The translations under genes and the position numbers were made by a program. Shown here in pieces: positions 13,117 to 35,059 of a stretch of 64,000 bases of DNA (its first letter is position 1; every line of letters starts with the position of its first letter). The stretch comes from Parcubacteria group bacterium (GTDB lineage: Bacteria > Patescibacteriota > Minisyncoccia > 2-02-FULL-40-12). The notes below the pieces were generated by a model, which did no database searches, was not told where the DNA came from, and saw only the letters and a program-made list of their open reading frames with translations. The stretch covers positions 5,036 to 69,035 of the forward strand of contig JACPLU010000001.1 in assembly GCA_016186395.1 (NCBI GenBank), read 5' to 3'.

Positions 13117-13127
13117 GAGAATTAAGT

Positions 13128-13214
13128 TTAATGTCTAGTGACTAAAGTCTAGAGTCTAGGGTCTAAAGACTTTAAAAAATTTTGCTTTAGACTTTAGCCA
13201 TTAGACTTTAAGCC
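13128..13214. repeat. Family A hairpin repeat
   Basis: taatgtctagtgactaaag...gtctaaagac-tttaaaaaattttg-ctttagac tttagccattagactttaag. Confidence 0.8.
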
Positions 13215-13224
13215 TTATTCACTG

Positions 13225-14408: not shown

Positions 14409-14423
14409 GTTTTTGTCTGGTGG

Positions 14424-14482
14424 CAAAAGTCTAAAGCAAAATTTTTTAAAGCCTTTAGACCTTAGTCTTTAGACTCTAGACG
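14424..14482. repeat. Family A hairpin repeat
   Basis: gtctaaagc-aaaattttttaaagc-ctttagac cttagtctttagactctagac. Confidence 0.8.
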
Positions 14483-14485
14483 GAT

Positions 14486-14953
14486 TTGAGAAGAGGCCCA
14501 ATAACCAAAAAATTGTTAGAACCAGATTTAAAATATCAGAGTTCTTTGGTTACCCGTTTTATAAATTATGTAATGGATTCAGGTAGGAAGTCAGCTGCCA
14601 AAAAGATCGTTTATGGAGCCTTAGCTCACGCTGAAAAAAAAGTTAATAAACCTGCCCTAGAAATTTTAGATGCTGTTATTAAAAATGCCGGTCCGGAACA
14701 GGAACTACGCTCTCGGAGAGTCGGCGGCGCTAATTATCAGGTGCCTCATCCAGTAAACGCGGATAGAAGAGTAACTTTAGCGTATCGTTGGATTATCGCT
14801 GCGGCTCACTCTAAAAAAGGAAAACCAATGTCAGAAAAACTTGCTCAGGAGTTAATTGACGCCTTTAATAATACTGGAATCGCAGTCAAGAAAAAGACAG
14901 ACACACATAAAATGGCCGATGCGAATAAAGCTTTTGCTCATTTTGCGTGGTAG
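14486..14953 (+). CDS. rpsG: 30S ribosomal protein uS7
   Basis: S7 pattern (DSGRKSAAKKIVYGAL...RRVGGANYQVP). Confidence 0.95.
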   Translation: MRRGPITKKLLEPDLKYQSSLVTRFINYVMDSGRKSAAKKIVYGALAHAEKKVNKPALEILDAVIKNAGPEQELRSRRVGGANYQVPHPVNADRRVTLAYRWIIAAAHSKKGKPMSEKLAQELIDAFNNTGIAVKKKTDTHKMADANKAFAHFAW

Positions 14954-14993
14954 AATTTTTCGCCTTTCTCAATAAAATATAAAATTGAAAGAA

Positions 14994-15198
14994 CTTGATA
15001 AATAATACTCTTTCTCTTTCTTCGCAAACCCCAGCGTGGTTTGCTCAGGGGTTGAGCTCTTTGCTCTTATCCAACTCTTTCTTTTGAAAGAGCTGGGTAA
15101 ACCATGCCCGTCCCGATTTCTGCTCCGCAGAATCGAGGATCCTCGATAGCATCGGGACTACGGGCTCAAAACCCGTTCAAGAGTATTATTCACCAAGT
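14994..15198. mobile_element. MITE-like element, copy 1 (about 205 bp; 19-bp TIR CTTGGTGAATAATACTCTT; palindromic core AATCGAGGATCCTCGATT; central hairpin cassette variant 1)
   Basis: Left end cttgataaataatactctt and right end aagagtattattcaccaag are inverted. Both arms are nearly identical to the inverted arms of the 30098-30317 copy. It is inserted between rpsG and fusA. Confidence 0.8.
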
Positions 15199-15266
15199 TC
15201 AATTGAAAAGGTAAATATTAAAATGACAAATAAATTTTAAATTTTGCATTGTCATTCTGAATTTTT

Positions 15267-17381
15267 ATGAGGGACTACCCAATCGAAAAAACTCGTGACA
15301 TAGGAATCATCGCTCACATAGATGCTGGAAAAACTACGGTAAGTGAGCGTGTTTTATTTTATACCGGAGTTTCGCATAAAATAGGCGAGGTGCACGAAGG
15401 AGAAGCAATAATGGATTGGATGGAACAAGAGCGTGAACGTGGTATTACAATTACTGCTGCTGCAACAACGACTTTTTGGATTCCAACTGATAAAACAAAT
15501 GCTCCAGATAGAAAGAATTACGAACATAAAATAAATATTATAGACACTCCAGGACATGTTGATTTTACGGTTGAAGTTGAGCGTTCTTTAAGAGTTTTAG
15601 ATGGAGCCGTAGTTGTTTTTGACGGGGTTGCTGGAGTAGAGCCACAGTCTGAAACTGTTTGGCGTCAAGCAGACAAATATAAAGTTCCCAGGGTATGTTT
15701 TATAAACAAACTAGACAGATTGGGGGCATCTTTTGAGCGTTCTTTTCAATCTATTTTAGATCGTTTAACCCCCAACGCTGTAAGAATGCAAATTCCCGAT
15801 GGACACGAAGATAAATTCTTGGGAGTCGTGGACCTTTTGACAATGAGATATTATACATTTGAGGGAAAGTCTGGAGAAAAGATTGAAGAACATGAAATCC
15901 CCGAAAATCTAAAATTAGACGCAGAAAGATATCATCATGAGTTAGTAGAGAAAATAGTGGAGCAAGACGAAATTTTAATGAATCAATATTTGGAAGGTAA
16001 AGAGCCGTCAACATTGGAATTAATGAGGGTTTTGCGAGATGCGGTTTTAAATTATAAATTAGTTCCTGTATTTTGTGGAGCCGCATTAAGAAATAAGGGA
16101 GTGCAATTTATGTTGGATGCAGTTGTGCATTATTTACCATCGCCGTTAGATGTACCTCCGGTTAGGGGAATTAACGTTAAGACCGGGGAAGAAGAACTAA
16201 GAGAAACAAAAGATGATGCACCTTTTTCAGCCTTAGCATTTAAAGTAGCAACAGACCCATATGTGGGACAGTTAACTTACTTTAGGGTTTACTCGGGGCA
16301 GTTAAAAGCCGGATCGTATGTTTTAAACACTTCGAGCGGTCAACAAGAACGTGTCGGCAGAATTTTACAGATGCATGCCAATGAGAGGAAAGAAATGCAA
16401 GAAGTTTATGCTGGTTATATTGCGGCAACGGTTGGTTTAAAAAGTACAAAAACTGGACACACCCTTTGTGATCCGGAACACCCAGTTAGGTTGGAAGAAA
16501 TTACTTTTCCTGAACCAGTTATTTCTTTAAGAATTGAACCAAGGACTAAGGCTGATCAGGAAAAAATGGGAGTTGCTTTAAAAAGATTATCCGACGAGGA
16601 TCCTACATTTCGTCTTAAGGGAGATGAAGAAACAGGGGATACCATTATTTCAGGAATGGGAGAGTTGCATCTTGAAATAATTGTAGATCGAATGAAAAGA
16701 GAATTTGGGGTTGAGGCGAACGTCGGCCGGCCACAGGTAGCTTATAAGGAAACAATTCAGAAGTTGACTGAAAGTGAAGGGAAATATATTCGTCAATCCG
16801 GAGGCCGCGGACAATATGGACATGTTTGGTTGCGTTTAGAGCCGTTGGAACGAAGTAAGGGGTATGAATTTGTAAATGCTCTTAAAGGTGGAGTTATACC
16901 AAATGAGTTTGTTCCGGCAGTTGAGAAGGGGGTAAAAGAAGCTATAGAAAAAGGAATATTGGCTGGTTACCCGGTGGTAGATGTAAAGGTTACTGTTTAT
17001 GATGGGTCTTATCATGAGGTTGATTCGTCAGAAATGGCATTCAAGATTGCCTCCTCCATTTCTTTTCAGGAAGGAGCAAAAAGAGCCAATCCAATTATTT
17101 TGGAGCCCATTATGAAGGTTGAAGTTATAATGCCGGATTCGTTTTTGGGTGAGGTAACTGGGGATCTTAATTCCAGGAGAGGTCAAATTTTCAATATAGG
17201 CGATAGAACGGGCTTGAATCTAAAAGTTATTGATGCTAAAGTGCCATTGGCTGAAATGTTTGGTTATGCAACGACTATAAGGTCTTTAACTGAAGGTCGT
17301 GGAACATTTACGATGGAGTTTGGCAATTACGAACCAGTTCCAGCAAGTATCGTACAGCAGATCGTAGAGGGGAAGAAGTAA
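15267..17381 (+). CDS. fusA: Elongation factor G
   Basis: G1 [17 protein letters not shown], and full EF-G length with domains IV and V. Confidence 0.97.
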
Positions 17382-17389
17382 GTTTTTGT

Positions 17390-17677
17390 CTGAACACAGT
17401 GACTTGTGATGAGCTTGCTTGCCCTGAACTTGTTGAAGGGGTTGAATCAAACGAGCACAGTTATAAAAAGTTACCCAGCCCCACTTTTACTATTTGAATA
17501 ACGGCAATTTAAAGCTTTAAATTGCCGGGCTAAATGGCCTTATATAATCTTTTAGTAGTAAGTTCATATTGCAATGGTAAAAGTGGAGCTGGGTGCGGAT
17601 AACTGTGGTTATTCGCTTCCTAAAACATTTTTCAAATGTTCGGGCTAGTCCGTGCGTAGGCACTACGCCCTAGGACG
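17390..17677 (+). other. Non-coding structured segment between fusA and tuf
   Basis: acccagccccacttttac (17472-17490) pairs with gtaaaagtggagctgggt (17578-17596). It encloses the perfect hairpin cggcaatttaaag/ctttaaattgccg. A further GC-rich hairpin is gcgtaggcactacgc. Confidence 0.4.
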
Positions 17678-17706
17678 ATCATTATTCAATATAATTGAAT
17701 AATGAT
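17678..17706. promoter_or_regulatory. 29-bp operator-like palindrome (13-bp perfect arms, 3-bp spacer), 26 bp upstream of ORF 17732
   Basis: atcattattcaat-ata-attgaataatgat. Confidence 0.5.
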
Positions 17707-17731
17707 TTAGTCGCTCATAAACATTTATCGC

Positions 17732-18112
17732 ATGCTAACTAAGGAATTACAAAATTTAACTGATAAATTGGGAGGTGTGGTTTTGGTTGAGGATGGTAAC
17801 CCTAAATTTGTTTTACTTTCATATAAGAAATTTAATGAATTATCTGGTGGTAATGGACTTGAGCCACATAATGATCCAACAATAGTCGCCCACGAATCAA
17901 TTAATAGTGGGTTTGAACATGTAAGTTCGGGAATCTCCAACAAACAAAACGAATTAGTAAATTTGTATCAGACAAACAGAACAGAACCTGTAATAATTGA
18001 GGACGGTGAATTAATTGAAAGATTAAACAAAGAGATTATGACCCTAAAAGAAGAAATTGAAGCAAAAGAGAAAGAGCTTGGTTTAACGGCGGATGTGGAG
18101 AGTATTGGATGA
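17732..18112 (+). CDS. Small hypothetical protein: Phd/YefM-antitoxin-like N-terminus plus C-terminal coiled coil
   Basis: N-terminus LTKELQNLTDKLGGVVLVEDGNPKFVLLSYKKFNEL resembles the Phd/YefM fold pattern. C-terminus LIERLNKEIMTLKEEIEAKEKEL. No toxin partner is present. Confidence 0.4.
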   Translation: MLTKELQNLTDKLGGVVLVEDGNPKFVLLSYKKFNELSGGNGLEPHNDPTIVAHESINSGFEHVSSGISNKQNELVNLYQTNRTEPVIIEDGELIERLNKEIMTLKEEIEAKEKELGLTADVESIG

Positions 18113-18247
18113 GGATAAAAGAATGTTTGACGGTTTATTTTTTCCTGTTATAATAACATAGGAATTACTTCTATATATAAAGACAAAGGGATGGAAACAA
18201 GGGGCAAAGCCGTTTGTTCTCTATTACCTGTCGCTTAAAGCTCATTT

Positions 18248-19450
18248 ATGCCAGAAAAATTTGAAAGGAATAAACCACATATGAATGTCGGAACCGTTGG
18301 TCATGTTGACCATGGAAAGACTACATTAACTGCGTCAATTTTACATGTCGCTAATTTGTTATCTGGCCAAGGCTATAAAGCCAGAGTCGAGGGGGTCAAT
18401 GATATTGATAATGCTCCAGAAGAAAAAGCTCGAGGTATTACTATTGCCCTTCACCATTCCGAATACGAAACACCCAAAAGGCATTATGCGCACGTAGATG
18501 CTCCTGGGCATGCAGATTATATCAAAAATATGATAACCGGTGCCGCTCAAATGGACGGTGCGGTTTTAGTTGTGTCAGCCGCAGATGGCCCAATGCCTCA
18601 AACAAGGGAACACATTCTTTTGGCTCGTCAGGTTGGTGTGCCATCAATTGTTGTATTTTTAAATAAAGCTGATCAAGTTTCTGACCCGGAGCTTATTGAT
18701 CTTGTAGAAACTGAAGTTAGAGAGCTTTTGAATAAGTATCAATTTCCTGGTAACGAGACCCCAATTATTAGAGGTTCAGCGCTTAAAGCATTAGAGGCAA
18801 AGTCTGCTGACGACGAAGCAGTTAAACCAATTAAACAACTTTTAGACACATTAGATTCTTACATGCCTGAACCGGTTCGAGATATGGATAAGCCATTTTT
18901 AATGCCAATTGAAGATATTTTTTCTATTGAAGGCCGAGGCACTGTAGTTACCGGAAAAGCGGAAAGAGGAAAACTAAAGTTAAATGATACTGTTGAGATT
19001 GTGGGTCTTAAGCCAACTCAAAATACTGTAATTACTGGAGTTGAAATGTTTAATAAACAGATGGATGAAACTATTGCTGGAGATAATGTTGGTTTATTAT
19101 TGCGTGGTTTGAAAAAAGAAGACGTAATGAGAGGACAAGTACTTGCCGCTCCTGGTTCTATAACTCCTCATACCGAATTTGACGCGGAGGTTTATATTTT
19201 AACCAAAGAAGAAGGCGGAAGACACACCCCATTTTTTAAGGGTTATAAACCCCAATTTTATGTAAGAACTACAGATGTAACTGGAGAAGTGATTTTACCA
19301 GAAGGTACTGAAATGGTAATGCCAGGAGATACCGTAAATTTGAAGATTAAATTAATTGCTCCGATTGCCTTAGAGGTAAAGATGAGATTTGCCATAAGAG
19401 AGGGGGGTAAAACTGTTGGTGCCGGAGTGGTTACAAAGATTACAGCGTAA
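18248..19450 (+). CDS. tuf: Elongation factor Tu
   Basis: [40 protein letters not shown]. Confidence 0.97.
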
Positions 19451-19454
19451 ATGG

Positions 19455-19565
19455 AATACAAATTTACAAATGATATGCGAATGCAACAAATAATATTATG
19501 TATCAAATAGTAAGCATGAATTATTCGTACGTGCGCATTCGTAGCGCGCTATTAGCATACTGTTC
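19455..19565. repeat. Family D leader-like repeat (diverged copy) upstream of rpsJ
   Basis: caaatttacaaatgatatgcgaatgcaac and attcgtacgtgcgcattcgtagcgcg resemble the 24023 and 26152 copies. Confidence 0.5.
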
Positions 19566-19573
19566 TTTAGAAA

Positions 19574-19909
19574 ATGCCCACTAAAAAACCCAAAAAAGAG
19601 GAGTTACAACAGAGAATTAGGATCAAACTAAAAGCGTTTGACGGTAGAGTTATTGACCGTTCAACAAAACAGATTGTTGAGACTATTGAACGTTATGGCG
19701 CAAAGATGATTGGTCCAGTTCCGTTACCTACAGAAATTTCAAGAGTAACGGTTAACAGGTCACCTTTTGTTCACAAAAATAGTAGAGAGCAATACGAAAT
19801 GAGAGTGCATAAGCGCTTAATTGATATTTTAAACCCAACCCCACAGATTATAGATTCTTTGATGAATTTAAACCTGCCCGCCGGAGTAGATATTGAAGTT
19901 AAAATGTAA
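19574..19909 (+). CDS. rpsJ: 30S ribosomal protein uS10
   Basis: [10 protein letters not shown]...GPVPLPT...[16 protein letters not shown]. Confidence 0.95.
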
Positions 19910-19914
19910 ATAAC

Positions 19915-19995
19915 GTTCTGTGAGCCCGCCTATGGGCGAGACGAGCGGCTAGCGGAATTTATCCCGAGGAGCATAAGCGACGAGGGACGGATTCT
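19915..19995 (+). other. Anomalously GC-rich segment immediately after rpsJ
   Basis: gagcccgcctatgggcgagacgagcggctagcgg...cccgaggagcataagcgacgagggacgg, in an otherwise AT-rich context. Confidence 0.35.
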
Positions 19996-20124
19996 TTAAA
20001 AAATGGAAAACGAACCAAAAACTGAAAAATATTTTCTCAACAAAGACGAAAAATAGAGATTCTTGGCTCAATTAAAGTTGCAGCATTAGAGATACAAAAA
20101 AGGGCGGCAGAGCTGATTGACTTA

Positions 20125-20277
20125 ATGCAACAAGCAGAAGACAATATTGATAAGAATGGGGAAATAACTATGACCGAAGATCTAAAAGAAGGTGTTCTTA
20201 GAGGAATCTATAATATAAAAAGGAGGCAAGAAGTTTTTTCTCGGATTGAGCATATAGAAGAGTTTAAGGATAAATAA
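20125..20277 (+). CDS. Possible small ORF (50 aa from the ATG; open from 20032) in the rpsJ-rplC spacer
   Basis: MQQAEDNIDKNGEITMTEDLKEGVLRGIYNIKRRQEVFSRIEHIEEFKDK. Not in the supplied track. Coding status uncertain. Confidence 0.25.
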   Translation: MQQAEDNIDKNGEITMTEDLKEGVLRGIYNIKRRQEVFSRIEHIEEFKDK

Positions 20278-20292
20278 AATTATTCCCTTCCT

Positions 20293-20350
20293 CTTGCCAT
20301 AATTCATGGTTCGAGCTTCAAGCTTCATGTTTCATGAATAGGTGGCAAGC
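20293..20350. repeat. Family B repeat (TTCATGTTTCA/GTTTCAAG units) inside a 7-bp hairpin cttgcca...tggcaag
   Basis: cttgccataattcatggttcgagcttcaagcttcatgtttcatgaataggtggcaag. Confidence 0.75.
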
Positions 20351-20477
20351 GATAAGGTAGTAATGCCTTAGTAAATGAAAATTATGGTTTTACCGTTACT
20401 AAAGCCAGACTAAAATTAAAGTATACAAAGATTTAGCGTTTTTATTATGCCCAGCTAAATCTGGGTTTTTTGTTGAA

Positions 20478-21113
20478 ATGACTAAGTTTATTCTAGGTAA
20501 AAAAATCGGTATGTCGCAAGTATTTAAAGAAGACGGAGCGGTTATTCCGGTTACTTTAGTTGAAGCCGGACCAGTTACAGTCACCAAGCTTAGGACAAAA
20601 GAAAAAGACGGTTATGAAGCGATCCAGATAGGATCGCAAAAATCAAAAATCAAAAATCCCCGGCCTCGCCAAGCGAAGCGGGGCGGGCAAAAATCAAAAT
20701 TTGAGAACCTGAAAGAATTTAAACCCAAGTTTCAAGATTCAAGTTTCAAGATTCAAGACTTCACTCTTGGTCAAAAAATTGATGTATCTATTTTTGAAGA
20801 AGGAGAAGTTGTAAAAATTAGCGGAGTTTCTAAGGGTAAGGGTTTTCAAGGAGGAGTGAAACGTCATGGATTTCACGGTATGCCGGCAAGTCATGGTCAT
20901 AAGCATGTTACTCGTACTCCAGGATCAATCGGGCAGAGGTTTCCACAGCACACTCTTAAAGGAACAAGAATGGCTGGTCATATGGGTCATGAAAGGGTAA
21001 CTGTTGAGGGGTTAAAAGTTGTTAAGGTAGACAAGGAAAATAATATTTTATTGATAAAAGGAGCGATTCCGGGTAGACGGGGAACTCTAGTTGAGATTGT
21101 TAATGATAATTAA
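20478..21113 (+). CDS. rplC: 50S ribosomal protein uL3 (contains an in-frame family B-like tandem unit at 20728-20760)
   Basis: GKKIGMSQVF...VTKGKGFQG...HGSIGQRFPQ. The internal aagtttcaagattcaagtttcaagattcaagac encodes KFQDSSFKIQDF. Confidence 0.95.
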   Translation: MTKFILGKKIGMSQVFKEDGAVIPVTLVEAGPVTVTKLRTKEKDGYEAIQIGSQKSKIKNPRPRQAKRGGQKSKFENLKEFKPKFQDSSFKIQDFTLGQKIDVSIFEEGEVVKISGVSKGKGFQGGVKRHGFHGMPASHGHKHVTRTPGSIGQRFPQHTLKGTRMAGHMGHERVTVEGLKVVKVDKENNILLIKGAIPGRRGTLVEIVNDN

Positions 21114-21116
21114 ATC

Positions 21117-21776
21117 ATGAAGACGGATTTATATAATCAAGAAGGAGAAGTTATTCAGAAAATCGAAATTCCCGATAAGATTTTTAACATTTCAATAAAT
21201 CAAGATTTAATACATCAAGCAGTACTAGCCCAGGATGCAAATTCAAGGTTGTCATTGGCACATGCAAAAGATAGGTCAGAAGTAAGGGGAGGGGGAAAAA
21301 AACCTTGGCGGCAAAAGGGTACTGGTCGTGCCAGGCATGGTTCCATTCGTTCACCTATTTGGGTTGGGGGTGGGGTAACCCACGGGCCTCTTAAGTCCAA
21401 GATATTTCAAAAGAAAATTAATAAAATAATGAAAAGAAATGCTTTGTTAATGGCTCTTTCCTCAAAAGTTAAGGATAGCCAGGTTTTGTTTGTAGATAAA
21501 TTATCACCGAAAGATTATAAAACAAAACAACTGGTTTCTATTTTAAATCGTCTTTCAAGTAAACTTCAAAATTATAAAAAGACAAAAATAAAACAAGATA
21601 GCATTTTAATTTTAAGCAATGGTCAAGATAAAAATTTAAATATTGCTTCCAAGAATATTCCCTATTTGTTAAATCTGAGATCTGACAGTTTAAATATAAA
21701 AGATGTTTTGGTTAATAAGTATTTAATTGTGTTAGAAGAGGCGATACCTACAATAGAAAAGATGTATTTAAGGTAA
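21117..21776 (+). CDS. rplD: 50S ribosomal protein uL4
   Basis: RGGGKKPWRQKGTGRARHGS. Confidence 0.95.
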   Translation: MKTDLYNQEGEVIQKIEIPDKIFNISINQDLIHQAVLAQDANSRLSLAHAKDRSEVRGGGKKPWRQKGTGRARHGSIRSPIWVGGGVTHGPLKSKIFQKKINKIMKRNALLMALSSKVKDSQVLFVDKLSPKDYKTKQLVSILNRLSSKLQNYKKTKIKQDSILILSNGQDKNLNIASKNIPYLLNLRSDSLNIKDVLVNKYLIVLEEAIPTIEKMYLR

Positions 21777-21786
21777 AATTTTAAAC

Positions 21787-22206
21787 ATGGCACTATTTAA
21801 AAAGTCTAAAAAAGAAAAAGAAGAAAAAATGAAAATCGAAGAAAGCGATAAGTTTTTAGATAACGGCAAAAAGTCTAAAGATAACGATGGCGCAAAAACC
21901 TTTTTGCCTAAAGGCAAAGACTCAAAGTCTTATTTATTAATAAAAATACCTCATACTACAGAAAAAGCGGTATTTTTAAAACAAAGTAGAAATCAGTACA
22001 CGTTTGAAGTCTTTCCTAATGCAAATAAGAATGAGATTAAAAAAGCAGTAGAAAGATTGTATGAAGTTAAAGTAAAGAAAGTTATGGTAACCAGAACTTC
22101 AGGAAAGGTTCGTCAGCTCGGTCGTTTTACAGGTTTTAAGTCCGGTATTAAGAAAGCTGTAGTTGTTCTTGCGAAGGGTCATAAAATAGATATTTTATCA
22201 ACATGA
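21787..22206 (+). CDS. rplW: 50S ribosomal protein uL23 with a lysine-rich N-terminal extension
   Basis: YTFEVFPNANKNEIKKAVERLYEVKVKKV. Confidence 0.9.
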   Translation: MALFKKSKKEKEEKMKIEESDKFLDNGKKSKDNDGAKTFLPKGKDSKSYLLIKIPHTTEKAVFLKQSRNQYTFEVFPNANKNEIKKAVERLYEVKVKKVMVTRTSGKVRQLGRFTGFKSGIKKAVVVLAKGHKIDILST

Positions 22207-23033
22207 TAAAAAAATATAATCCTACAACTCCTGGCAGAAGACAGATGACAGGTTATGATTTTTCTAACTTAAGCAAAGTTGAGCCTTTAAGATCTTTAAA
22301 AATGGGCTTGAGAAGGTCAGTTGGTAGGAATAATCAAGGAAGAATCACTACTCTTCATAAAGGGGGTGGAGTAAAACGTTCTTATAGAATGATTGATTTT
22401 AACCAACTTGATAAGTTAGATATTCCGGCCAGAGTGGAAACGATTGAATATGATCCGAATCGTTCCGCTAGGATTGCTAGAATTCTCTATCTCGATGGAT
22501 CAAGAAGCTATATTCTTGCTCCCGATAGTTTAAAAGCTGGAGATCGTGTAACCTCATTTTCTAAAACCGGATCTTTAGCGGTTGGCAATAGGTTAAAACT
22601 GCGCTATATTCCACAAGGCACCCAAATATATAATATAGAGTTACAACCTGGAAAAGGTGGGCAGATTGTTCGTTCTGCCGGTTCAACGGCTCAAATGTTA
22701 GCTGTTGAAGATGACAAATATGTACAGGTTAAAATGCCTTCTGGTGAGGTCCGTCGTTTCTTGGCTGACTCGATGGCAAGCATTGGGCAATTATCAAACC
22801 AAGAGCATATGCATATTAGTTTAGGCAAAGCAGGAAGGTCACGCTGGTTAGGTCGTAGGCCGGCTGTGCGTGGAACAGCCATGAATCCAGTTGATCATCC
22901 TCATGGAGGAGGTGAAGGAAAACAGCCATTGGGAATGCCACCAAAGACTCCGTGGGGGAAAAAGGCTATGGGAGTTAAAACTAGGAAAAGAAAGAAAATA
23001 AGTAACAGATTAATAGTAAAGAGAAGAAAATAA
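22203..23033 (+). CDS. rplB: 50S ribosomal protein uL2
   Basis: GRNNQGRIT..HKGGG, VDHPHGGGEGK. Confidence 0.97.
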   Translation: MIKKYNPTTPGRRQMTGYDFSNLSKVEPLRSLKMGLRRSVGRNNQGRITTLHKGGGVKRSYRMIDFNQLDKLDIPARVETIEYDPNRSARIARILYLDGSRSYILAPDSLKAGDRVTSFSKTGSLAVGNRLKLRYIPQGTQIYNIELQPGKGGQIVRSAGSTAQMLAVEDDKYVQVKMPSGEVRRFLADSMASIGQLSNQEHMHISLGKAGRSRWLGRRPAVRGTAMNPVDHPHGGGEGKQPLGMPPKTPWGKKAMGVKTRKRKKISNRLIVKRRK

Positions 23034-23039
23034 AATTAT

Positions 23040-23387
23040 ATGTCTAGAAGTCTGAAAAAGGGACCATATGTAAATCCGAAGCTGTTAAAAAAAATAGCTA
23101 AACTTCGTGCTGGCGACAAAACAATTATAAAAACTTGGGCTAGAAGTTCAACCATTACTCCTGAAATGGTTGGATTTACTTTTGGAGTGCACAACGGAAA
23201 AATTCATATACCGGTTTTGATAACAGAAGAAATAGTTGGCCACAAGTTAGGAGAGTTTGCGCACACAAGAAGGTTTAGCCGTCATGGTGGTCGTATGCAG
23301 AGAGAATTGGAAGCCGCGGCCAAACAAAGAGAAGTTGACGCAGCAAAGGCGGCAAAGACAGCAACAGAAGAAAAAGGTGGAAAGTAA
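23040..23387 (+). CDS. rpsS: 30S ribosomal protein uS19 with a C-terminal extension
   Basis: SLKKGPYV...[30 protein letters not shown]. Confidence 0.95.
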
Positions 23388-23455
23388 AAACGTGAAACCT
23401 GAATCATGAAACTTTAAATTTAAGAATGTTTCAAGTTATAGGTTTCAAGTTGTAG
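23388..23455. repeat. Family B repeat
   Basis: aaacgtgaaacctgaatcatgaaactttaaatttaagaatgtttcaagttataggtttcaagttg. Confidence 0.75.
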
Positions 23456-23457
23456 AA

Positions 23458-24021
23458 TTGCAGGTAACCGCACAACTAAATCAGTTAAGAATTGCACCGA
23501 GAAAGGTCAGAATAGTAGCACATCAATTACGTGGGCTTGATATAGTATCGGCCAAAAGTAAATTGAAATATGTGATAAGACGAGCGAGTCATCCGATTGA
23601 AAAGTTGCTTGATTCGGCAATATCAAATGCTGTGAATAATCATGGTCTTGATAAGGATTCACTTTTCATAAAAGATTTGGTGGTAAATGAGGGTAGAAAG
23701 TTAAAACGTTTTAAGGCTAGAGGATTTGGCATGACCATGCCTATTCAAAGAAAATCAAGTAACTTAAGGATAGTTTTAGACCAATTGTCAGAAGAAAAAT
23801 TAGAAAAGATTAAAACAAGATTGTCTAGAAGAAAAGTTTTAAATCAAATGCCTGAAGTTAAGGAATTGAAACAAGGTTTAGAAACGGAAAAAAGGAAGTC
23901 TTCTGATAAAGAATATGAAAAGCCCAGGTTTACCGAGAAACAGAGTCTAGGTAAAAATAAAAGTTTTCTCGGAGGCATAAAGGGTTTAAGTAGAAAGATG
24001 TTTAGAAGAAAATCAGTGTAA
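23458..24021 (+). CDS. rplV: 50S ribosomal protein uL22 with a roughly 70-aa basic C-terminal extension (TTG start)
   Basis: RIAPRKVRIVAHQLRG...AISNAVNN...FKARGFG. Confidence 0.9.
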   Translation: MQVTAQLNQLRIAPRKVRIVAHQLRGLDIVSAKSKLKYVIRRASHPIEKLLDSAISNAVNNHGLDKDSLFIKDLVVNEGRKLKRFKARGFGMTMPIQRKSSNLRIVLDQLSEEKLEKIKTRLSRRKVLNQMPEVKELKQGLETEKRKSSDKEYEKPRFTEKQSLGKNKSFLGGIKGLSRKMFRRKSV

Positions 24022-24022
24022 A

Positions 24023-24117
24023 ATCGATTCAAATATACAAATTGATGCGAATGATACGAATCAGACTAGAGACAAATGAATGCTATTCGTATAATTAGTA
24101 TATTTGTATCGCAGAAT
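24023..24117. repeat. Family D leader-like repeat (about 90 bp), copy 2
   Basis: aaaatcgattcaaatatacaaattgatgcgaatgatacgaatc...gtataattagtatatttgtatcgcag. Its first 44 bp match 26152-26196 at 41/44 bp. Confidence 0.8.
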
Positions 24118-24747
24118 TTGGCACAAAAAAATTCACCCATCGCAAATAGGCTTGGAATTATCGAGGATTGGAGATCTCGGTGGTTTTCTATTAAAAACTA
24201 CAAATCCTATCTTCATGATGATTTGAGAATCCGTGAATATTTAGACAAGCGGTTACGGGGTTTTTCTGTGGACAAGATAGAAATTGAAAGAAGCCCGGGC
24301 CAGTTAATGTTGCGTCTATGGACTGCTAGGCCGGGTTTGATTATTGGTCGTGGGGGTACTGGTATAGAAGAGTTGAAAAGCGAGTTGGAGTCAATTATTG
24401 AAGATAAAACGAGAGTTAGACTCGAAGTTCAAGAAATAAAAAAACCGACGATGTCTGCCGCTATTGTAGCCGAACAGATTGCCGAACAGATTGAAAGAAG
24501 GGTGCCATTTAGAAGAACGATGAAACAGGCCTTCGCAAAAATTATTGCTAATCCTGAAGTTAAGGGAGCCAAAATTCAAATTTCTGGAAGGCTGGACGGG
24601 AGCGAGATTGCCAGAGAAGAACATACTGAATCAGGCCTACTTCCTTTACAGACATTGAGGGAAAAAATTGATTATGCTCAAAATACTGCTTTTACAACTT
24701 ATGGCACCGTAGGAATCAAGGTGTGGATCTATAAACCAGGCGACTAA
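24076..24747 (+). CDS. rpsC: 30S ribosomal protein uS3 (the track start lies inside repeat D; probable true start is TTG at 24118)
   Basis: IANRLGIIEDWRSRWF...KH-domain GRGG...TMKQAFA...GRLDGSEIAR. The first 14 codons are encoded by the repeat. Confidence 0.9.
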   Translation: MNAIRIISIFVSQNLAQKNSPIANRLGIIEDWRSRWFSIKNYKSYLHDDLRIREYLDKRLRGFSVDKIEIERSPGQLMLRLWTARPGLIIGRGGTGIEELKSELESIIEDKTRVRLEVQEIKKPTMSAAIVAEQIAEQIERRVPFRRTMKQAFAKIIANPEVKGAKIQISGRLDGSEIAREEHTESGLLPLQTLREKIDYAQNTAFTTYGTVGIKVWIYKPGD

Positions 24748-24832
24748 AGACCAAAGTCTAAAGCTCAGTGATTAAAGACCAAAGCCAGAAATTTAATTAG
24801 CCTTAGCCTTTAGTCATTAAACTTTAGACAAG
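24743..24832. repeat. Family A hairpin repeat (the rpsC stop codon lies inside it)
   Basis: gactaaagaccaaagtctaaag...ctttagtcattaaactttagac. Confidence 0.8.
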
Positions 24833-24838
24833 TTTTGT

Positions 24839-25243
24839 ATGCTTCAACCCAAAAGATTAAAACATCGAAAGGTATTTCGTCGGCACATAGCGCCGGTTGC
24901 TTCGCGTGGTAATTATATTTCTTTTGGATCCTTTGGGTTAAAGACAGAAGAGTCGTATTGGCTTAAAGCAAATCAGATTGAGGCGGCTAGAAAAAGTATA
25001 ACAAGATATTTAGAAAAGGGTGGTAAGTTATGGATTAGGGTTTTTCCCCATGTTCCTCAAACTGCTAAAAGTGCAGAAGTTGGAATGGGCGGAGGTTCAG
25101 GACCAATAGTTGGTTTTTCGGCTCCAGTTGAAGCAGGAAGAATTTTATTTGAGATAGATGGAGTCGACGAAAAGGTTGCCAGAGAAGCTTTCAGACTGGC
25201 TAGCAGTAAGCTGCCGGTAAAAACAAGATTTATAAAAAAGTAA
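24839..25243 (+). CDS. rplP: 50S ribosomal protein uL16
   Basis: MLQPKRLKHRKVFRR...G. Confidence 0.95.
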   Translation: MLQPKRLKHRKVFRRHIAPVASRGNYISFGSFGLKTEESYWLKANQIEAARKSITRYLEKGGKLWIRVFPHVPQTAKSAEVGMGGGSGPIVGFSAPVEAGRILFEIDGVDEKVAREAFRLASSKLPVKTRFIKK

Positions 25244-25250
25244 TATAATT

Positions 25251-25460
25251 ATGGCTACCAAATTTAAAGAATTTAAACAAAAAACGATATTAGAACTGAA
25301 TAACCTTTTGAATGAAAAGAAGGTTGAACTTGGCCATTTGCGGTTCCAGTTGCAAGATAAACAGTTAAAAAACGTTAACAAGATTAAAGAAACAAAAAGA
25401 GATGTAGCGAGAATTAAAACTTTATTGTCCAATAAAGACGTTAAGTTGGTCCAAAAATAA
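25251..25460 (+). CDS. rpmC: 50S ribosomal protein uL29
   Basis: Position and size match; L29 coiled-coil pattern (ELNNLLNEKKVELGHLRFQL). Confidence 0.85.
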   Translation: MATKFKEFKQKTILELNNLLNEKKVELGHLRFQLQDKQLKNVNKIKETKRDVARIKTLLSNKDVKLVQK

Positions 25461-25711
25461 TGGATAACCCTAAAATTAAAATAAAACGCAAGCTCAAGGG
25501 AGTTATAGTATCTGATAAAATGCAGAAAACTGTTGTGGTGTCCATAACCAGATTAAAGAAACATCCAAAGTATAAGAAATTTTATAAAATAACCAATCGT
25601 TTTAAAGCTCATGATGAAAAAAATGAATATAAGGTTGGTGAAAGGGTTATCATTCAAGAAACCAGGCCGATATCAAAAGAGAAGCACTGGAGAGTTGCGG
25701 GCAGGGTTTAG
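25460..25711 (+). CDS. rpsQ: 30S ribosomal protein uS17
   Basis: GVIVSDKMQKTVVVSITRLKKHPKYKKF. Confidence 0.9.
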   Translation: MDNPKIKIKRKLKGVIVSDKMQKTVVVSITRLKKHPKYKKFYKITNRFKAHDEKNEYKVGERVIIQETRPISKEKHWRVAGRV

Positions 25712-25800
25712 AAATTTTAAACATGAAACTTGAAATTTGAAGCATTTCTAAATGTTCCATGATTCACGCTTCATGTTACATGATCCTTGATTCAACTTCG
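25712..25800. repeat. Family B repeat
   Basis: aaacatgaaacttgaaatttgaagc...gttccatgattcacgcttcatgttacatgatcc. Confidence 0.75.
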
Positions 25801-26152
25801 TTCAATGGTTCAGGTTGCAGATAATACCGGTGCTAAAAAAATCGGAGTTATTCGCGTACTCGGCGGTTCGTCCAGGAGATATGGTCAGATAGGAGATATA
25901 GTGGTCGGATCAATTAAAGAAGCAGAACCACGTAAACAGGTTAAGAAAAAAGATAAAGTTCGTTGTTTGATTGTCCGTCAGCGCAAGGCTTTTAGAAGAA
26001 AAGATGGTACGTATATAAAATTTGATGACAATTCAGTTGTAATTTTGGAAGGGAAAGAACCAAAGGGAGGAAGAATTTTTGGTCCTATTCCAAGAGAGAT
26101 TAAAGAATTAGGATATGCTACCATCGCTTCGTTGGCAGAAGAGCTGGTGTAA
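25787..26152 (+). CDS. rplN: 50S ribosomal protein uL14
   Basis: MIQ...VADNTGAKK...GGS. Confidence 0.95.
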   Translation: MIQLRSMVQVADNTGAKKIGVIRVLGGSSRRYGQIGDIVVGSIKEAEPRKQVKKKDKVRCLIVRQRKAFRRKDGTYIKFDDNSVVILEGKEPKGGRIFGPIPREIKELGYATIASLAEELV

Positions 26153-26236
26153 ACCGATTCAAATATACGAATTGATGCTAATGATACGAATCTTATTAGT
26201 ATAATTAGTATGCATTAGTATATTGGTATCGCGGAA
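26152..26236. repeat. Family D leader-like repeat, copy 3
   Basis: aaaccgattcaaatatacgaattgatgctaatgatacgaatc...attagtataattagtatgcattagtatattggtatcgcgg. Confidence 0.8.
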
Positions 26237-26542
26237 GTGAAATTACATAAAGGTGACAACGTAAAAATGTTATCTGGTAAAGACCATGGTAAACAGGGTA
26301 AGGTTTTGCGTGTTTTTCCTTTTGAAGAAAAGGTGGTTGTTGAAGGTCTTAATTTGGTTAAAAAACATGAGCGTGCAAAAAAGCAGGGGCAAAAAGGTCA
26401 AATTATTTCAGTTCCGAGGTTGGTGAATATTTCGAGTGTTGGTTTAGTTTGTAAAAATTGTGGTAAAGCAACAAGAGTTGGTTATAAATTTGAAGGAGAA
26501 AGAAAGGTTAGAATTTGTAAAAAGTGCGGAGCAGAAACTTAA
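26237..26542 (+). CDS. rplX: 50S ribosomal protein uL24 (GTG start) with a C-terminal Cys-rich tail
   Basis: KLHKGDNVKMLSGKDHGKQGKVLRV (KOW motif), then CKNCGK...CKKCG. Confidence 0.9.
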   Translation: MKLHKGDNVKMLSGKDHGKQGKVLRVFPFEEKVVVEGLNLVKKHERAKKQGQKGQIISVPRLVNISSVGLVCKNCGKATRVGYKFEGERKVRICKKCGAET

Positions 26543-26590
26543 AAAATGAGGTTGAAAAACGATATGTCGGCTTTATAAAAGCGATTTTTT

Positions 26591-27148
26591 ATGAAAAAAG
26601 AGTCAAATACACTTAAAGAGAAATATAAGAAAGAAGTAATTCCTGCGATGCAGGCTAAATTTGGTTATAAAAGCATTATGGCTATACCTAAGATTGAAAA
26701 AGTAACAGTAAATGTTGGGATTGGCAGGGCTTTAAAAGAAACAAATCAGAAGTTGATAGATCGGATAAAACATGATATAGCTACAATCACTGCTCAAAAG
26801 GCAGCACCGCGTAGAGCTAAAAAATCTATTGCTGGCTTTAAAACAAGGCAAGGGATGGTAGTTGGCTATCAGGTTACTTTAAGGGGGAAAAGAATGCTTG
26901 ATTTTATGGAACGTCTTATTAAAATCGCTCTGCCAAGAGTAAGGGATTTTAGAGGATTACCCGAATCTTTATTTGATCAGAATGGCAATTTAAATATAGG
27001 AATAAAAGAACAAAATATCTTTCCAGAAATAGAGTTTGAGTCGGCAAAAGATCTATTTGGTCTACAGATAACCATAACGACTTCAGCAAAAACTAAGGAA
27101 GAAGGAGTAGAATTGCTTAAATTGATGGGATTCCCGATTAAATCATGA
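26591..27148 (+). CDS. rplE: 50S ribosomal protein uL5
   Basis: PKIEKVTVNVGIG...GFKTRQGMVVG. Confidence 0.95.
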   Translation: MKKESNTLKEKYKKEVIPAMQAKFGYKSIMAIPKIEKVTVNVGIGRALKETNQKLIDRIKHDIATITAQKAAPRRAKKSIAGFKTRQGMVVGYQVTLRGKRMLDFMERLIKIALPRVRDFRGLPESLFDQNGNLNIGIKEQNIFPEIEFESAKDLFGLQITITTSAKTKEEGVELLKLMGFPIKS

Positions 27149-27214
27149 AGCATGTAGCATGTAACCCGAATCATTTAAAAAGTTTTAGGTTTCAGGTTTC
27201 AGGTTTTACGATTC
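27146..27214. repeat. Family B repeat supplying the rplE stop (TCATGA) and the rpsZ start (TTCATGG)
   Basis: aatcatgaagcatgtagcatgtaacc...gtttcaggtttcaggttttacgattcatgg. Confidence 0.75.
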
Positions 27215-27400
27215 ATGGCAAAAAAATCACTAATAGTTAGATTAAAAAAACCAAGAAAATTTCAGGTTCGTAGTAGGGGCCATTGTTTTATTTGTGGACG
27301 GACCCATGGATATTTGAGTAAATTTGGTCTTTGTAGGATACATTTTAGAGAATACGCTAATAGGGGTTTGATTCCAGGAGTAAAGAAGGCATCATGGTGA
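27215..27400 (+). CDS. rpsZ: 30S ribosomal protein uS14, zinc-binding type Z
   Basis: 61 aa, [23 protein letters not shown]. Confidence 0.9.
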
Positions 27401-27426
27401 TAATGTGCCTCACTAACGTTCGGCAC

Positions 27427-27477
27427 GACTAGGGACTAGGGACTAAAGCCTTAGACTATAGACATTAGACTTTAGAC
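27427..27477. repeat. Family A hairpin repeat
   Basis: gactagggactagggactaaagccttagactatagacattagactttagac. Confidence 0.75.
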
Positions 27478-27483
27478 AAAAAT

Positions 27484-27885
27484 ATGACTGACCCAATTTC
27501 GGATTTTTTTATAAGAATTAAGAATGCTTATGCTGCCAAAAAGGAGCGCGTATTGGTGCCGTTCTCAAATTTAAAGTTTGAAATTGCCAGCGAATTAGAA
27601 AGAGGGGGCTTTGTCCAGGAAATTGGAAAAAGAAAGAAAAAAGTTTTAAAGTCTAACCATTTATATCTGGACATAAAGTTAAAATATAAAGACAATGGCC
27701 CGGCGATGGAAGGATTAAGAATTTTTAGTTCTCCTTCAAGGCGTATCTATATAAAGTCTAAAGACATTAGACCAGTCAGGTCCGGTTATGGGATGGCTAT
27801 TTTATCTACACCAAAGGGTATAATGAGTGAAAAAGCAGCCAGAAAAGAGAATGTTGGCGGAGAACTGATTGCAGAAGTGTGGTAA
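27484..27885 (+). CDS. rpsH: 30S ribosomal protein uS8
   Basis: MTDPISDFFIRIKNA...GGELIAEVW. Confidence 0.95.
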   Translation: MTDPISDFFIRIKNAYAAKKERVLVPFSNLKFEIASELERGGFVQEIGKRKKKVLKSNHLYLDIKLKYKDNGPAMEGLRIFSSPSRRIYIKSKDIRPVRSGYGMAILSTPKGIMSEKAARKENVGGELIAEVW

Positions 27886-27889
27886 TAAA

Positions 27890-27950
27890 GTATTAAAAAT
27901 TAAACATCAAACCTTATTTTTGATTTTTGATTTTTGAATTTTAATTTTGT
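27890..27950. repeat. Family C repeat (TTTTGA/TCAAAA units)
   Basis: catcaaaccttatttttgatttttgatttttgaattttaattttgtttga. Confidence 0.7.
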
Positions 27951-28493
27951 TTGAGTCGTATAGGAAAAAAACCAATTCAGATACCACCTGGAGTTGACGC
28001 AAGAATCAACGATTTTTTGTTTTCAGCCAAAGGACCAAGAGGTCAGTTGGAAAAAAAGGTATACAATAAACTAGAAGTTCTTTTGGAAGATGAAAAAATT
28101 CTTTTAAAACCGTTGGCAACAGATAGGCATACTGCCGCAATGTGGGGGACTGAACACGCTCATATTAAGAACATGATAAAAGGAGTAACCGAAGGTTTTG
28201 AAAAAGTACTAGAGCTTGAAGGCATCGGATACAAAGCGGTTTTAAAAGACAATGGGCTTGATTTAAGCGTTGGTTTCAACAAGCCGATAACTGTTAAAGT
28301 TCCGGAGGGAATAACTTTTAGAGTAGAAAAAAATGCAATTTTTATTAACGGTAACAATAAACATTCTGTTGGTCAGATTGCTGCTGAAATAAGGAAAATT
28401 CGTCCACCCGAACCATATAAAGGAAAGGGGATTCGTTACCGAGGTGAAATTATTAAGAAAAAGGCTGGCAAGAAAGCTGTTTCAACAGGATAG
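27951..28493 (+). CDS. rplF: 50S ribosomal protein uL6 (TTG start)
   Basis: SRIGKKPIQIP. Confidence 0.95.
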   Translation: MSRIGKKPIQIPPGVDARINDFLFSAKGPRGQLEKKVYNKLEVLLEDEKILLKPLATDRHTAAMWGTEHAHIKNMIKGVTEGFEKVLELEGIGYKAVLKDNGLDLSVGFNKPITVKVPEGITFRVEKNAIFINGNNKHSVGQIAAEIRKIRPPEPYKGKGIRYRGEIIKKKAGKKAVSTG

Positions 28494-28504
28494 TTTTTAT
28501 AAGG

Positions 28505-28858
28505 ATGAATAGTAAAGAAAAACAATATAGAAAAACTAGAAGGCATAAAAGAATCAGAGCAAAAATCTCCGGAACTTTAGATTGTCCTCGTCTCTCAATA
28601 TTTAGAAGTAATCAGCATTTGTATTCTCAATTAATAGATGATATAAATGGCCGGACCCTTTTAAGTGTTTCTGATTTAAAGATTAAAAAACCTAAAACAT
28701 CTTTGAAGCAGAAAGCAAAAGATCTTGGCCTCCTTTTAGCTGAAAAGGCAAAGCAAGTAAACATAAAAACTGTTGTTTTTGATCGAGGAGGTTATAAATT
28801 TCACGGCATTATAAAAGAATTTGCAAATGCAGCAAGAGAAGGAGGCCTTAAATTTTAA
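28505..28858 (+). CDS. rplR: 50S ribosomal protein uL18
   Basis: RLSIFRSNQHLYSQLIDD...VFDRGGYKFHG. Confidence 0.95.
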   Translation: MNSKEKQYRKTRRHKRIRAKISGTLDCPRLSIFRSNQHLYSQLIDDINGRTLLSVSDLKIKKPKTSLKQKAKDLGLLLAEKAKQVNIKTVVFDRGGYKFHGIIKEFANAAREGGLKF

Positions 28859-28871
28859 ATTATAAAAATAC

Positions 28872-29004
28872 CCCGTAGTGAAAATTCGAAAGGATTTACA
28901 CATGCTAAGTCACTGTGGGGTTTAAGAGATGTAATATAAAAAGAGTTTGAATAATGTTAGCAGATTCTAAAAATCATAAAGCATTATTCGAATTTCTACT
29001 ACGG
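28872..29004. repeat. IR-flanked insert between rplR and rpsE (20-bp near-perfect inverted repeats enclosing 93 bp)
   Basis: ccccgtagtgaaaattcgaa (28872-28891) versus ttcgaatttctactacgggg (28985-29004). Confidence 0.6.
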
Positions 29005-29005
29005 G

Positions 29006-29599
29006 GTGGATACACAAATTTCTGAACAAACTCAAAATAATACAGGGGCCGAAGAGAAGGCCATTTTAGAAATACCTAAAGAACCAGTTTTAGAAGAAAT
29101 ACGTTCCGAGAAGGAAGTAATTGCTAGAATAGAGGGAAGAAATAGAAGAAGAGATGACGAATTTGATCAAAAAGTTTTGGACGTGGCAAGGGTTACCAGG
29201 GTAACTAAGGGAGGAAAACGTTTTACTTTTAGGGCAACGGTTGTTTTGGGTGATCATAAAAACAGAGTAGGTGTTGGAACGGGAAGAGGGGCAGATGTTG
29301 CTCAAGCTATTGAGAAAGCTTCACGTTTAGCTAAGAAAAATGCAATTACTGTTTTGTTAAAAAAGGGAACAATTTCACATTTGGTTGAAGCAAAGTACGC
29401 AAGCGCCAGGGTGCTTTTAAAACCAGCTATGCCTGGTTCTGGAGTAAAGGCTGGGGGTCCAGTAAGAATAATTTCGAAATTGGCCGGCATTCAGGATATT
29501 ACAAGTAAACTTATTTCAAGAACTAACAATAAGATAAATATTGCTCAGGCGGTTATTCAAGCATTAAAGCAATTAAAGAATCTAGAAATTAGAAAATAG
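29006..29599 (+). CDS. rpsE: 30S ribosomal protein uS5 (GTG start, N-terminal extension)
   Basis: VARVTRVTKGGKRFTFRATVVLGD, then the C-terminal domain. Confidence 0.95.
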   Translation: MDTQISEQTQNNTGAEEKAILEIPKEPVLEEIRSEKEVIARIEGRNRRRDDEFDQKVLDVARVTRVTKGGKRFTFRATVVLGDHKNRVGVGTGRGADVAQAIEKASRLAKKNAITVLLKKGTISHLVEAKYASARVLLKPAMPGSGVKAGGPVRIISKLAGIQDITSKLISRTNNKINIAQAVIQALKQLKNLEIRK

Positions 29600-29650
29600 A
29601 ATTTAGAATGTCGATTCTATATTTTTATTTTCTATTTCCAATTTTTAAAA

Positions 29651-30100
29651 ATGCGACTGCACGAAATTAGCTCAACAACTGGAAGAAAGAAAAAAAGAAT
29701 TGGGAGAGGAGGTAAAAGAGGTTCATATTCCGGCCACGGTGTTAAGGGTCAAAAAGCTAGAGCTGGTGCCGGAGTCAAACCTGGTTTTAGGGGTGGTGAT
29801 ACACCTATTTGGAAATTGTTCCCAAAGAAAAGAGGAGCTTCACGAAAACTTGAAATTAAAAAGCGTGGGTTTAGATTACATCAATTAAAACCTGTTGTGA
29901 TAAATCTTGATACTTTAGAGCGTTATTTTAAAGATGGGGACGCTGTTTCTCCTCAAACACTTCAAGAAAAGGGGTTAATTAAAAATACGAAACACAAGAT
30001 TAAAATCCTTGGTAGAGGCGGGCTGACAAAAAATTTAGAATTTAAAGATGTTATGTTTTCAGCTTCTGTATCAAAAATAATAAGTTTAAATAAGAAATAG
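29651..30100 (+). CDS. rplO: 50S ribosomal protein uL15 (no L30 gene lies between rpsE and rplO)
   Basis: GRKKKRIGRGGKRGSYSGHGVKGQKAR. Confidence 0.95.
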   Translation: MRLHEISSTTGRKKKRIGRGGKRGSYSGHGVKGQKARAGAGVKPGFRGGDTPIWKLFPKKRGASRKLEIKKRGFRLHQLKPVVINLDTLERYFKDGDAVSPQTLQEKGLIKNTKHKIKILGRGGLTKNLEFKDVMFSASVSKIISLNKK

Positions 30101-30317
30101 AAGTGGGCTTGGTGAATAATACTCTTGAACGGGTTTTGAGCCCGTAGTCCCGATGCTATCGAGGATCCTCGATTCTGCGGAGCAGAAATCGGGACGGGCA
30201 TGGTTTTCTCTGTCTGGATTTACAGTCCAGATAGAGAAAGAGCGAAGGGCTCAACCCCTGAGCAAACCACGCTGGGGTTTGCGAAGAAAGAGAAAGAGTA
30301 TTATTCACCAAGCTCAC
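30098..30317. mobile_element. MITE-like element, copy 2 (inverted relative to copy 1; central cassette variant 2), inserted between rplO and secY
   Basis: cttggtgaataatactctt...aagagtattattcaccaag. The arms are the reverse complement of copy 1's arms. The central 45 bp differ and form an 11-bp hairpin (ctctatctgga/tccagacagag). Confidence 0.85.
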
Positions 30318-35051: not shown

Positions 35052-35059
35052 TTTATAAA

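Follow-up and report, generated by a model that had tools for sequence, protein, structure and literature searches.

A stretch of 64,000 nucleotides (nt) from a Parcubacteria group bacterium (contig JACPLU010000001.1, positions 5,036 to 69,035; "the window" in what follows, numbered from its first letter) carries four pieces of one short inverted-repeat element, two of which are long copies lodged in spacers of ribosomal-protein operons. [quoted passage not shown] In every respect that could be tested, namely size, terminal inverted repeats (TIRs), target-site duplications (TSDs), dispersed copies, presence and absence in relatives, and ends shared with insertion sequences, the element behaves as a MITE. 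It is a previously undescribed example of a well-known kind, and conceptually an ordinary one. An earlier note on this DNA had also proposed a non-autonomous mobile element with TIRs, and this is borne out by TSDs, by empty sites in relatives and by transposase-encoding insertion sequences with matching ends.

Copies and ends of the element

The two long copies stand in opposite orientation between rpsG and fusA and between rplO and secY, as had been described before, with ends that we correct to 14991-15200 and 30105-30315. They share the terminus GAGCTTGGTGAATAATACTCTT with a short form and with a truncated left end, the latter already recognized as a left-end-only fragment and here given its full span of 5407-5440. 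Three complete copies and one fragment within 64 kb make several dispersed copies, laid out as follows.

14991-15200, + strand: MITE copy 1, 210 bp, in "forward" orientation, between rpsG (14486-14953) and fusA (15267-17381)
14983-14990: left TSD of copy 1, AATTGAAA; right copy at 15201-15208, an exact 8/8 match abutting both ends
14991-15012, + strand: left TIR of copy 1, GAACTTGATAAATAATACTCTT; right TIR at 15179-15200, 22 nt, 91% complementary
15069-15098, + strand: central hairpin found in copy 1 only, ATCCAaCTCTTTC TTTT GAAAGAGcTGGGT
15110-15158, + strand: internal palindromic module of copy 1, a tandem pair of hairpin units, TCC(Y)CGAT-x-ATCG(R)GGA, containing the TCGAGGATCCTCGA core
30105-30315, - strand: MITE copy 2, 211 bp, in the orientation opposite to copy 1, no TSD
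30207-30237, - strand: central hairpin found in copy 2 only
30146-30195, - strand: internal palindromic module of copy 2, the same sequence as in copy 1
35057-35125, + strand: short form, 69 bp, both termini plus CGCAAAACC, between a GalT-like gene (34041-35051) and a VTT-domain gene (35132-35752)
35049-35056: left TSD of the short form, TAATTTAT; right copy at 35126-35133
5407-5440, + strand: truncated left end, GGGTTTGGTGAATAATACTATTTCTCTTTCTTCG, in the spacer between ftsZ and the ribonucleotide reductase gene, adjoining another inverted-repeat element (5446-5545)

Copy 2 starts only 4 nt past the stop codon of rplO (30098-30100), with secY (30368-31630) downstream. The left TSD of the short form contains the stop codon of the GalT-like gene, and its right TSD overlaps the ATG of the VTT-domain gene. 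With sizes of 69, 210 and 211 bp and no similarity to transposases anywhere in the window, the element falls in the size range of prokaryotic MITEs, ~50-1000 bp, and has no transposase coding capacity.

The TIRs are 22-24 nt long and 91-96% complementary, and the true ends of the element lie 3 nt outside CTTGG. The earlier claim that both copies have the same TIR stands for the core CTTGGTGAATAATACTCTT, which recurs six times in the window at up to 3 mismatches (<=3) against 0.03 occurrences expected, and needs qualifying for the left terminus of copy 1, CTTGATAAATAATACTCTT, which has 2 mismatches to it. A seventh site, at 35103-35122, differs from the core by a 1-nt insertion. When copy 1 is set against reverse-complemented copy 2, the arms match over 78 nt at 94% and over 106 nt at 97%, a few flanking bases included, where near identity over ~64 and ~98 bp had been reported. 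The centre does differ between the copies and does fold in each, as had been said, although the diverging part spans ~30 nt (15069-15098 versus 30207-30237) instead of ~45, and the hairpin of each version (z -4.3 and -5.8) has 13 bp and a single A.C mismatch, instead of 10-11 bp. We also compared the two central hairpins by eye as possible inversions of one another and rejected this, as there was no similarity in either orientation.

Pfam confirms the genes that surround the pieces: S7 (14486-14953), EF-G (15267-17381) and L15 (29651-30100), the GalT-like gene (34041-35051), the VTT-domain gene (35132-35752), FtsZ and ribonucleotide reductase. The four pieces thus lie between S7 and EF-G, L15 and SecY, GalT and the VTT-domain protein, and FtsZ and ribonucleotide reductase. 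The window as a whole has a G+C content of ~37% and carries the str, S10 and spc ribosomal-protein clusters; the next relatives of its SecY are 83% identical.

Target sites and partner insertion sequences

The flanking duplications whose inspection the earlier note had recommended are present at two of the three complete copies, copy 1 and the short form, as exact 8-bp direct repeats in the same register, and are lacking at copy 2. The empirical chance rate of exact 8/8 flank matches in this window is 8-9e-5 per site.

Related genomes differ at the occupied junctions. Between rpsG and fusA the spacer measures 313 nt in the window versus 9 nt in L073, a close relative with 95% amino acid identity in S7 and ~88% nucleotide identity, while another relative, L074, has a spacer of 340 nt that is occupied by different palindromic elements. 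Where the window has the short form, the more distant relatives L001 and L003 show an 8-nt overlap of the GalT and VTT genes, and excision of the short form together with one repeat yields a compact junction, TAATTTATG, that is colinear with both. The rplO-secY junction of L001 and L003 lacks this element and has other TIR-bounded elements instead (GAGGGTATAGCCAATTTCT..., GGGTGTAGYTGTT...); it is a recurrent insertion site. Directly after rplO, L001 (9399-10000) and L003 (8950-10000) carry a different MITE family, with ends GAGGGTATAGCCAATTTCT; in L003, a terminal repeat of this type includes the stop codon of rplO, and a NUDIX gene is found between rplO and secY.

Repeat behavior is also visible in the assemblies. 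The contig L072, which comes from another sequencing run and is 100% identical to the window, terminates within copy 1 at ...CGCAAA, precisely at the position from which long and short forms differ, and such a break is usual assembler behavior at repeats.

These comparisons bear on whether the copies could be a conserved cis-regulatory leader, or another structured RNA of ribosomal-protein operons, and not mobile DNA at all. The position between ribosomal-protein and translation genes and the strong structure would suit a leader. However, the copies are found in both orientations relative to transcription and have TSDs, the element is also present between the GalT/VTT and FtsZ/ribonucleotide reductase genes, and the same junctions in L073, L001 and L003 are without it. 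A search of the element against Rfam gave no meaningful match at the gathering threshold or at a permissive one (E up to 10). The earlier note had reserved the leader for the case that relatives shared the sequence at these junctions and that no other copies existed; relatives without it and further copies are what we find. A leader is already contradicted by these data, and we give it next to no credence.

The ends of the element lead to its likely partner. Scans with an 18-mer of the terminus returned 11 genome loci and 42 metagenome loci, numbers near our own estimate of chance. Most matches were chance single sites in unrelated organisms, and a locus was retained solely if it came with an inverted partner or with a transposase. 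In a scan of viral contigs, the pattern of the internal module had no match and the terminus pattern had only chance matches within coding regions.

Six transposase-bearing insertion sequences on metagenomic contigs, including Kerfeldbacteria, share the termini GAG(T/C)(T/C)TGGTGAATAA and then T or C, except that one right end starts TAG and one reads ...GAATATT. Five of them (L063, L064, L057, L080 and L081) are 974-1010 bp long. The sixth, L013 (identical to L027), is an internally deleted copy of 828 bp with ends GAGTTTGGTGAATAATACTCTT and ...AATTATTCACCAAACTC, in which the DDE_Tnp_1 protein is split over two frames; its left end matches the terminus in the window at 21 of 22 positions. The encoded transposase has ~300 amino acids and matches PF01609 (DDE_Tnp_1) above the cut-off, with E-values of 5e-21 to 3e-19. 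Homologues of the L013 transposase, two of them named Candidatus Kerfeldbacteria, are mostly 250-305 amino acids long and often lie on short contigs (1-2 kb), a pattern to be expected of repeated insertion sequences. In L063 (1-1210), two insertion-sequence copies stand head to tail with 6 bp (ATGTAC) between them, a pair that may represent a dimer in tandem or the junction of a circle.

The same termini also bound elements of 60-175 bp with unrelated interiors in other contigs. These include a 60-bp element in a metagenome-assembled genome (MAG) of Staskawiczbacteria (L006; also L037 and L053), a 175-bp GC-rich MITE in Kerfeldbacteria (L057, 2340-2600) that has the same ends and lies 6 bp past the insertion sequence, and a family of ~162-168 bp at five metagenome loci (L018, L019, L030, L031 and L035), in which the arms are conserved and the central hairpin varies. 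A subterminal ...CGCAAA... motif is common to the mini elements, the short form in the window and the left ends of L063 and L081 (...AAAAGACG...). From this shared motif, the basic unit looks like a left end, a short subterminal piece and a right end, to which larger members would have added central DNA.

Several observations weigh against a MITE mobilized by these insertion sequences. Within the 64-kb window no transposase of the partner family was found, and the partner insertion sequence is known only from other metagenomic genomes. Its closest NCBIfam models are those of IS5, yet the best of them, NF033580, scores 52-66 bits, below the IS5 cut-offs (110-140; 110 for NF033580), so that the family appears to be IS5-like but divergent. 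The duplications are also uneven. No TSD was found at the ends of copy 2, nor at any of five sister MITEs with both ends visible, and among the six insertion sequences only L064 has one, of 6 bp and not 8, the other five having none. Chimeric flanks in metagenome assemblies could account for the TSDs missing from the insertion sequences. Lastly, removal of copy 1 and one repeat leaves a spacer of ~95 nt that has no counterpart in L073, and the rpsG-fusA site of this relative would therefore be described as absent rather than precisely empty.

Taking these points into account, we still favor the MITE and propose that a DDE transposase of ~300 amino acids, supplied in trans, would recognize the ~22-bp terminus GAG(C/T)TTGGTGAATAATACTCTT and insert the element into AT-rich intergenic DNA by an 8-bp staggered cut. 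The 69-bp form would represent little beyond the two ends and the subterminal CGCAAA motif, and the 210-bp forms would carry an added ~140-bp block of GC-rich hairpin units. Nested insertion, or recombination between palindromic repeats, may have built the mosaic interior, with the centre as its least constrained part that nevertheless remains a hairpin.

Mosaic interior and RNA structure

The long copies hold ~140 bp that are lacking in the short form, and this block consists of GC-rich local hairpins. Because near-identical CAAA(A)CC repeats border it, the short form either lost the block by a microhomology deletion or represents the ancestral state. The earlier note had taken it for a deletion derivative with fused termini at 35060-35117; the termini are indeed joined, over a true span of 35057-35125, but the short form may instead be ancestral.

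Within the block, the long copies contain the nested palindrome GTCCCGAT..TCGAGGATCCTCGA..ATCGGGAC, for which the best reading is a pair of units in tandem, TCC(Y)CGAT-x-ATCG(R)GGA, whose junction creates TCGAGGATCCTCGA. The nested palindromes previously seen in the shared arm are thus real, although two occurrences outside the element had been missed.

50363-50421, + strand: free-standing module, 82.8 bits, without MITE termini, upstream of tRNA-Thr
50429-50471, - strand: partial second module, inverted relative to the first, 25.9 bits, E 4e-4

The module is also found in the rpsG-fusA spacer of L074. Across contexts its first hairpin varies by paired changes (TTCTGC/GCAGAA, TTTTGC/GCAAAA, TTCTT/AAGAA). 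A second kind of unit, GAGCAAACCaCGCTGGGGTTTGCGAA, occurs in L003 within an element of different ends, in the same spacer and with an extra G..C pair. A covariance model of the module detected no additional copies in the 176 kb searched. Sharing of modules between repeat families appears to be real, though the cases are few. As the hairpin units occur both free-standing and within elements of other ends, the interior of the MITE is a mosaic of such units. The idea of a swappable central cassette goes further than two copies in this window allow; a looser modularity does hold, as the palindromic unit and one subterminal hairpin recur outside this element and within elements of other ends, and a sister family varies mainly at its central hairpin.

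Could the palindromic units themselves be the mobile entity? If they were repetitive extragenic palindromes (REPs) spread by a REP-associated tyrosine transposase (RAYT; Y1, IS200-like), the long TIRs would be incidental. The internal module does consist of tandem short hairpin units, occurs free-standing and in an inverted pair at 50363-50471, and is preceded in three of four independent copies by GTAG, a tetranucleotide known from REPs. On the other hand, the ends of the element agree with those of DDE insertion sequences at all but one of 22 positions, and Y1-mediated spread of REPs is not marked by 8-bp target duplications. The module is known from just four places in the window, of which two lie within the MITE copies, and from one in L074, with none in viral contigs, and no RAYT gene turned up, the open reading frames (ORFs) of the window not having been scanned for Y1 transposases. 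We regard this explanation as very improbable. The likeness to REPs or to bacterial interspersed mosaic elements (BIMEs) that the earlier note had raised is a resemblance only, and fits the internal unit, not the whole element.

As RNA, both copies of the MITE fold strongly, copy 1 at -91.3 kcal/mol (z -9.6) and copy 2 at -110.1 kcal/mol (z -10.9), with a closing stem of 19-22 bp in both orientations. The suggestion that the element might supply internal promoters or terminators found no support: promoter-like and terminator-like sites in it are no commoner than in shuffled sequence. A single weak hairpin that resembles a terminator (GCTCAGGGGTTGAGC with a poor tract of T) lies on the sense strand of copy 1 and of no other copy. 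Wobble and mismatch positions show no consistent strand preference, which argues against a strand-specific RNA function.

As fusA and secY are essential and downstream, and as the copies have no convincing terminator, they are probably read through within ribosomal-protein transcripts, where they would probably form very stable stem-loops. They most likely alter expression mildly or not at all, and RNase III processing of the stems would be a plausible side effect.

A stronger claim would be that the MITE has been domesticated, its spacer stem-loops serving as determinants of RNA processing or stability, for example as RNase III substrates, and uncoupling fusA and secY from the upstream ribosomal genes in the manner of the Correia elements of Neisseria. 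The strength of the folds and their closing stem in both orientations would suit this role, as would the preservation of the hairpin units with compensatory changes across contexts and the hairpins that many further spacers of this cluster form. That RNase III binds and cleaves Correia elements is published (PMC2649163). Against domestication, L073, the closest relative, manages with a 9-nt rpsG-fusA spacer, other relatives have unrelated elements at the same junctions, and the wobble and mismatch positions do not favor either strand. We think such a role unlikely.

A related idea, to which we give an equally low probability, is that Patescibacteria possess a stock of short hairpin units, exchanged among MITE families that differ in their ends and kept at particular intercistronic junctions of ribosomal-protein operons because their stem-loops have been co-opted as signals for RNA processing or stability. 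Such units would include TCC(Y)CGAT..ATCG(R)GGA, which holds the TCGAGGATCCTCGA core, as well as GAGCAAACC..GGTTTGCGAA. If this were true, MITEs would deliver a level of operon control specific to the lineage, within its reduced genomes.

Comparison with known systems and neighboring repeats

Bacterial MITEs that share IS5-family ends have precedents in BrickBuilt/MITE464 of Porphyromonas gingivalis, with ISPg1/ISPg9, and ATR of Neisseria, with ISNme1 (PMC4596501). Like these, the window element is small, non-coding and multi-copy, has GAG-starting ends that are identical or nearly identical to IS5-type ends, is one of several elements with unrelated interiors behind shared ends, has TSDs that are variable or missing, and carries cargo repeats inside (PMC4596501). 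It differs from them in sequence and host phylum (Patescibacteria), in an interior of GC-rich hairpin units and not a minisatellite, and in a partner seen only in other metagenomic genomes.

The earlier note had called insertion into the most conserved operons unusual. This needs qualifying: as cited in PMC10969869, Chunjie, a MITE from Geobacter uraniireducens (Chen et al. 2008), is inserted in an operon without breaking it, and other palindromic elements occupy the spacers studied here. Chunjie resembles our element in its position within an operon and in having full-length copies plus shorter derivatives with conserved ends, and differs in its unrelated sequence and parent element and in its targets, which here are ribosomal-protein clusters.

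Correia elements (CREE/NEMIS) are similar in their ~100-200 bp, long TIRs and a long stem as a possible RNase III substrate, and are co-transcribed with neighbor genes (PMC2649163). They are, however, characterized by a TA duplication, a site for integration host factor, promoters at their ends and no known transposase (PMC2649163), whereas the window element has an 8-bp duplication, no excess of promoters and an identifiable partner insertion-sequence family. Since its duplication is of 8 bp and not TA, and since promoter boxes are lacking, it is not a Correia element. With BOX of Streptococcus pneumoniae and the BIMEs of Escherichia coli (PMC3049150; PMC2229807) it shares a modular construction from short hairpin-forming units in varying combinations; unlike it, those elements have no long TIRs that match an insertion sequence, and the exchange of modules here amounts to few cases.

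The window holds further inverted-repeat elements, one of which adjoins the truncated MITE end.

17473-17594: element ACCCAGCCCCACTTTTAC..., downstream of fusA in the ribosomal cluster
28870-29007: element ACCCCGTAGTGAAAATTCGAA..., in the spacer upstream of the gene at 29006-29599 in the ribosomal cluster
5446-5545: element CCCCCACCTAACTTTT..., adjoining the truncated MITE end
1542-1674: element AGAAAAATTATATCCTT...

The rpsG-fusA spacer of L074 seems to contain a relative of a CCCCAC...ACTTT-type element. In addition, many intercistronic spacers of the ribosomal cluster are hairpins in which 7-nt repeats form inverted runs, either (GTCTAAA)n...(TTTAGAC)n or (GAAACNN)n...(GTTTCNN)n.

784-835, 1186-1251, 2671-2701, 13119-13220, 14430-14481, 23388-23457, 24748-24835, 25712-25786: heptamer-hairpin spacers, part 1
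27149-27212, 27430-27477, 33223-33253, 33417-33461, 33988-34052, 37791-37824, 44415-44452: heptamer-hairpin spacers, part 2

Four of six such spacers folded more stably than their shuffles (z -3.2 to -4.3). An inverted repeat of 65 nt with heptamers of the GTCTAAA type, 88% complementary (13142-13206 and 14415-14479), brackets ~1.2 kb containing the ORFs 13225-13872 and 13992-14408, the second of which is rpsL by synteny with L072 and L073 (Pfam Ribosom_S12_S23). As the ribosomal spacers of this lineage hold several unrelated small palindromic elements, the location of the MITE is not exceptional here.

Two RNA genes of the window also drew attention. The tRNA-Thr gene (50475-50547) lies inside a perfect 18-bp extended stem (50464-50481/50539-50556) and is followed, in the region 50464-50660, by two repeats that resemble tRNA 3' halves, one of which ARAGORN calls as a second, overlapping tRNA-Thr; these repeats may be remnants of integration at tRNA-Thr. 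The RNase P RNA (bacterial class A, 39148-39548) scores 102.7, barely at the Rfam gathering score of 100, which suggests a divergent RNA.

Genomes of the candidate phyla radiation (CPR)/Patescibacteria are small and commonly described as poor in mobile DNA, and our literature search found no report of MITEs in this group. The present element links one family of MITEs with a particular family of IS5-like transposases and shows such elements populating the spacers of ribosomal operons. It explains contig breaks in MAG assemblies, its copies could serve as markers of strain-level variation, and it flags strong intercistronic stem-loops next to essential genes.

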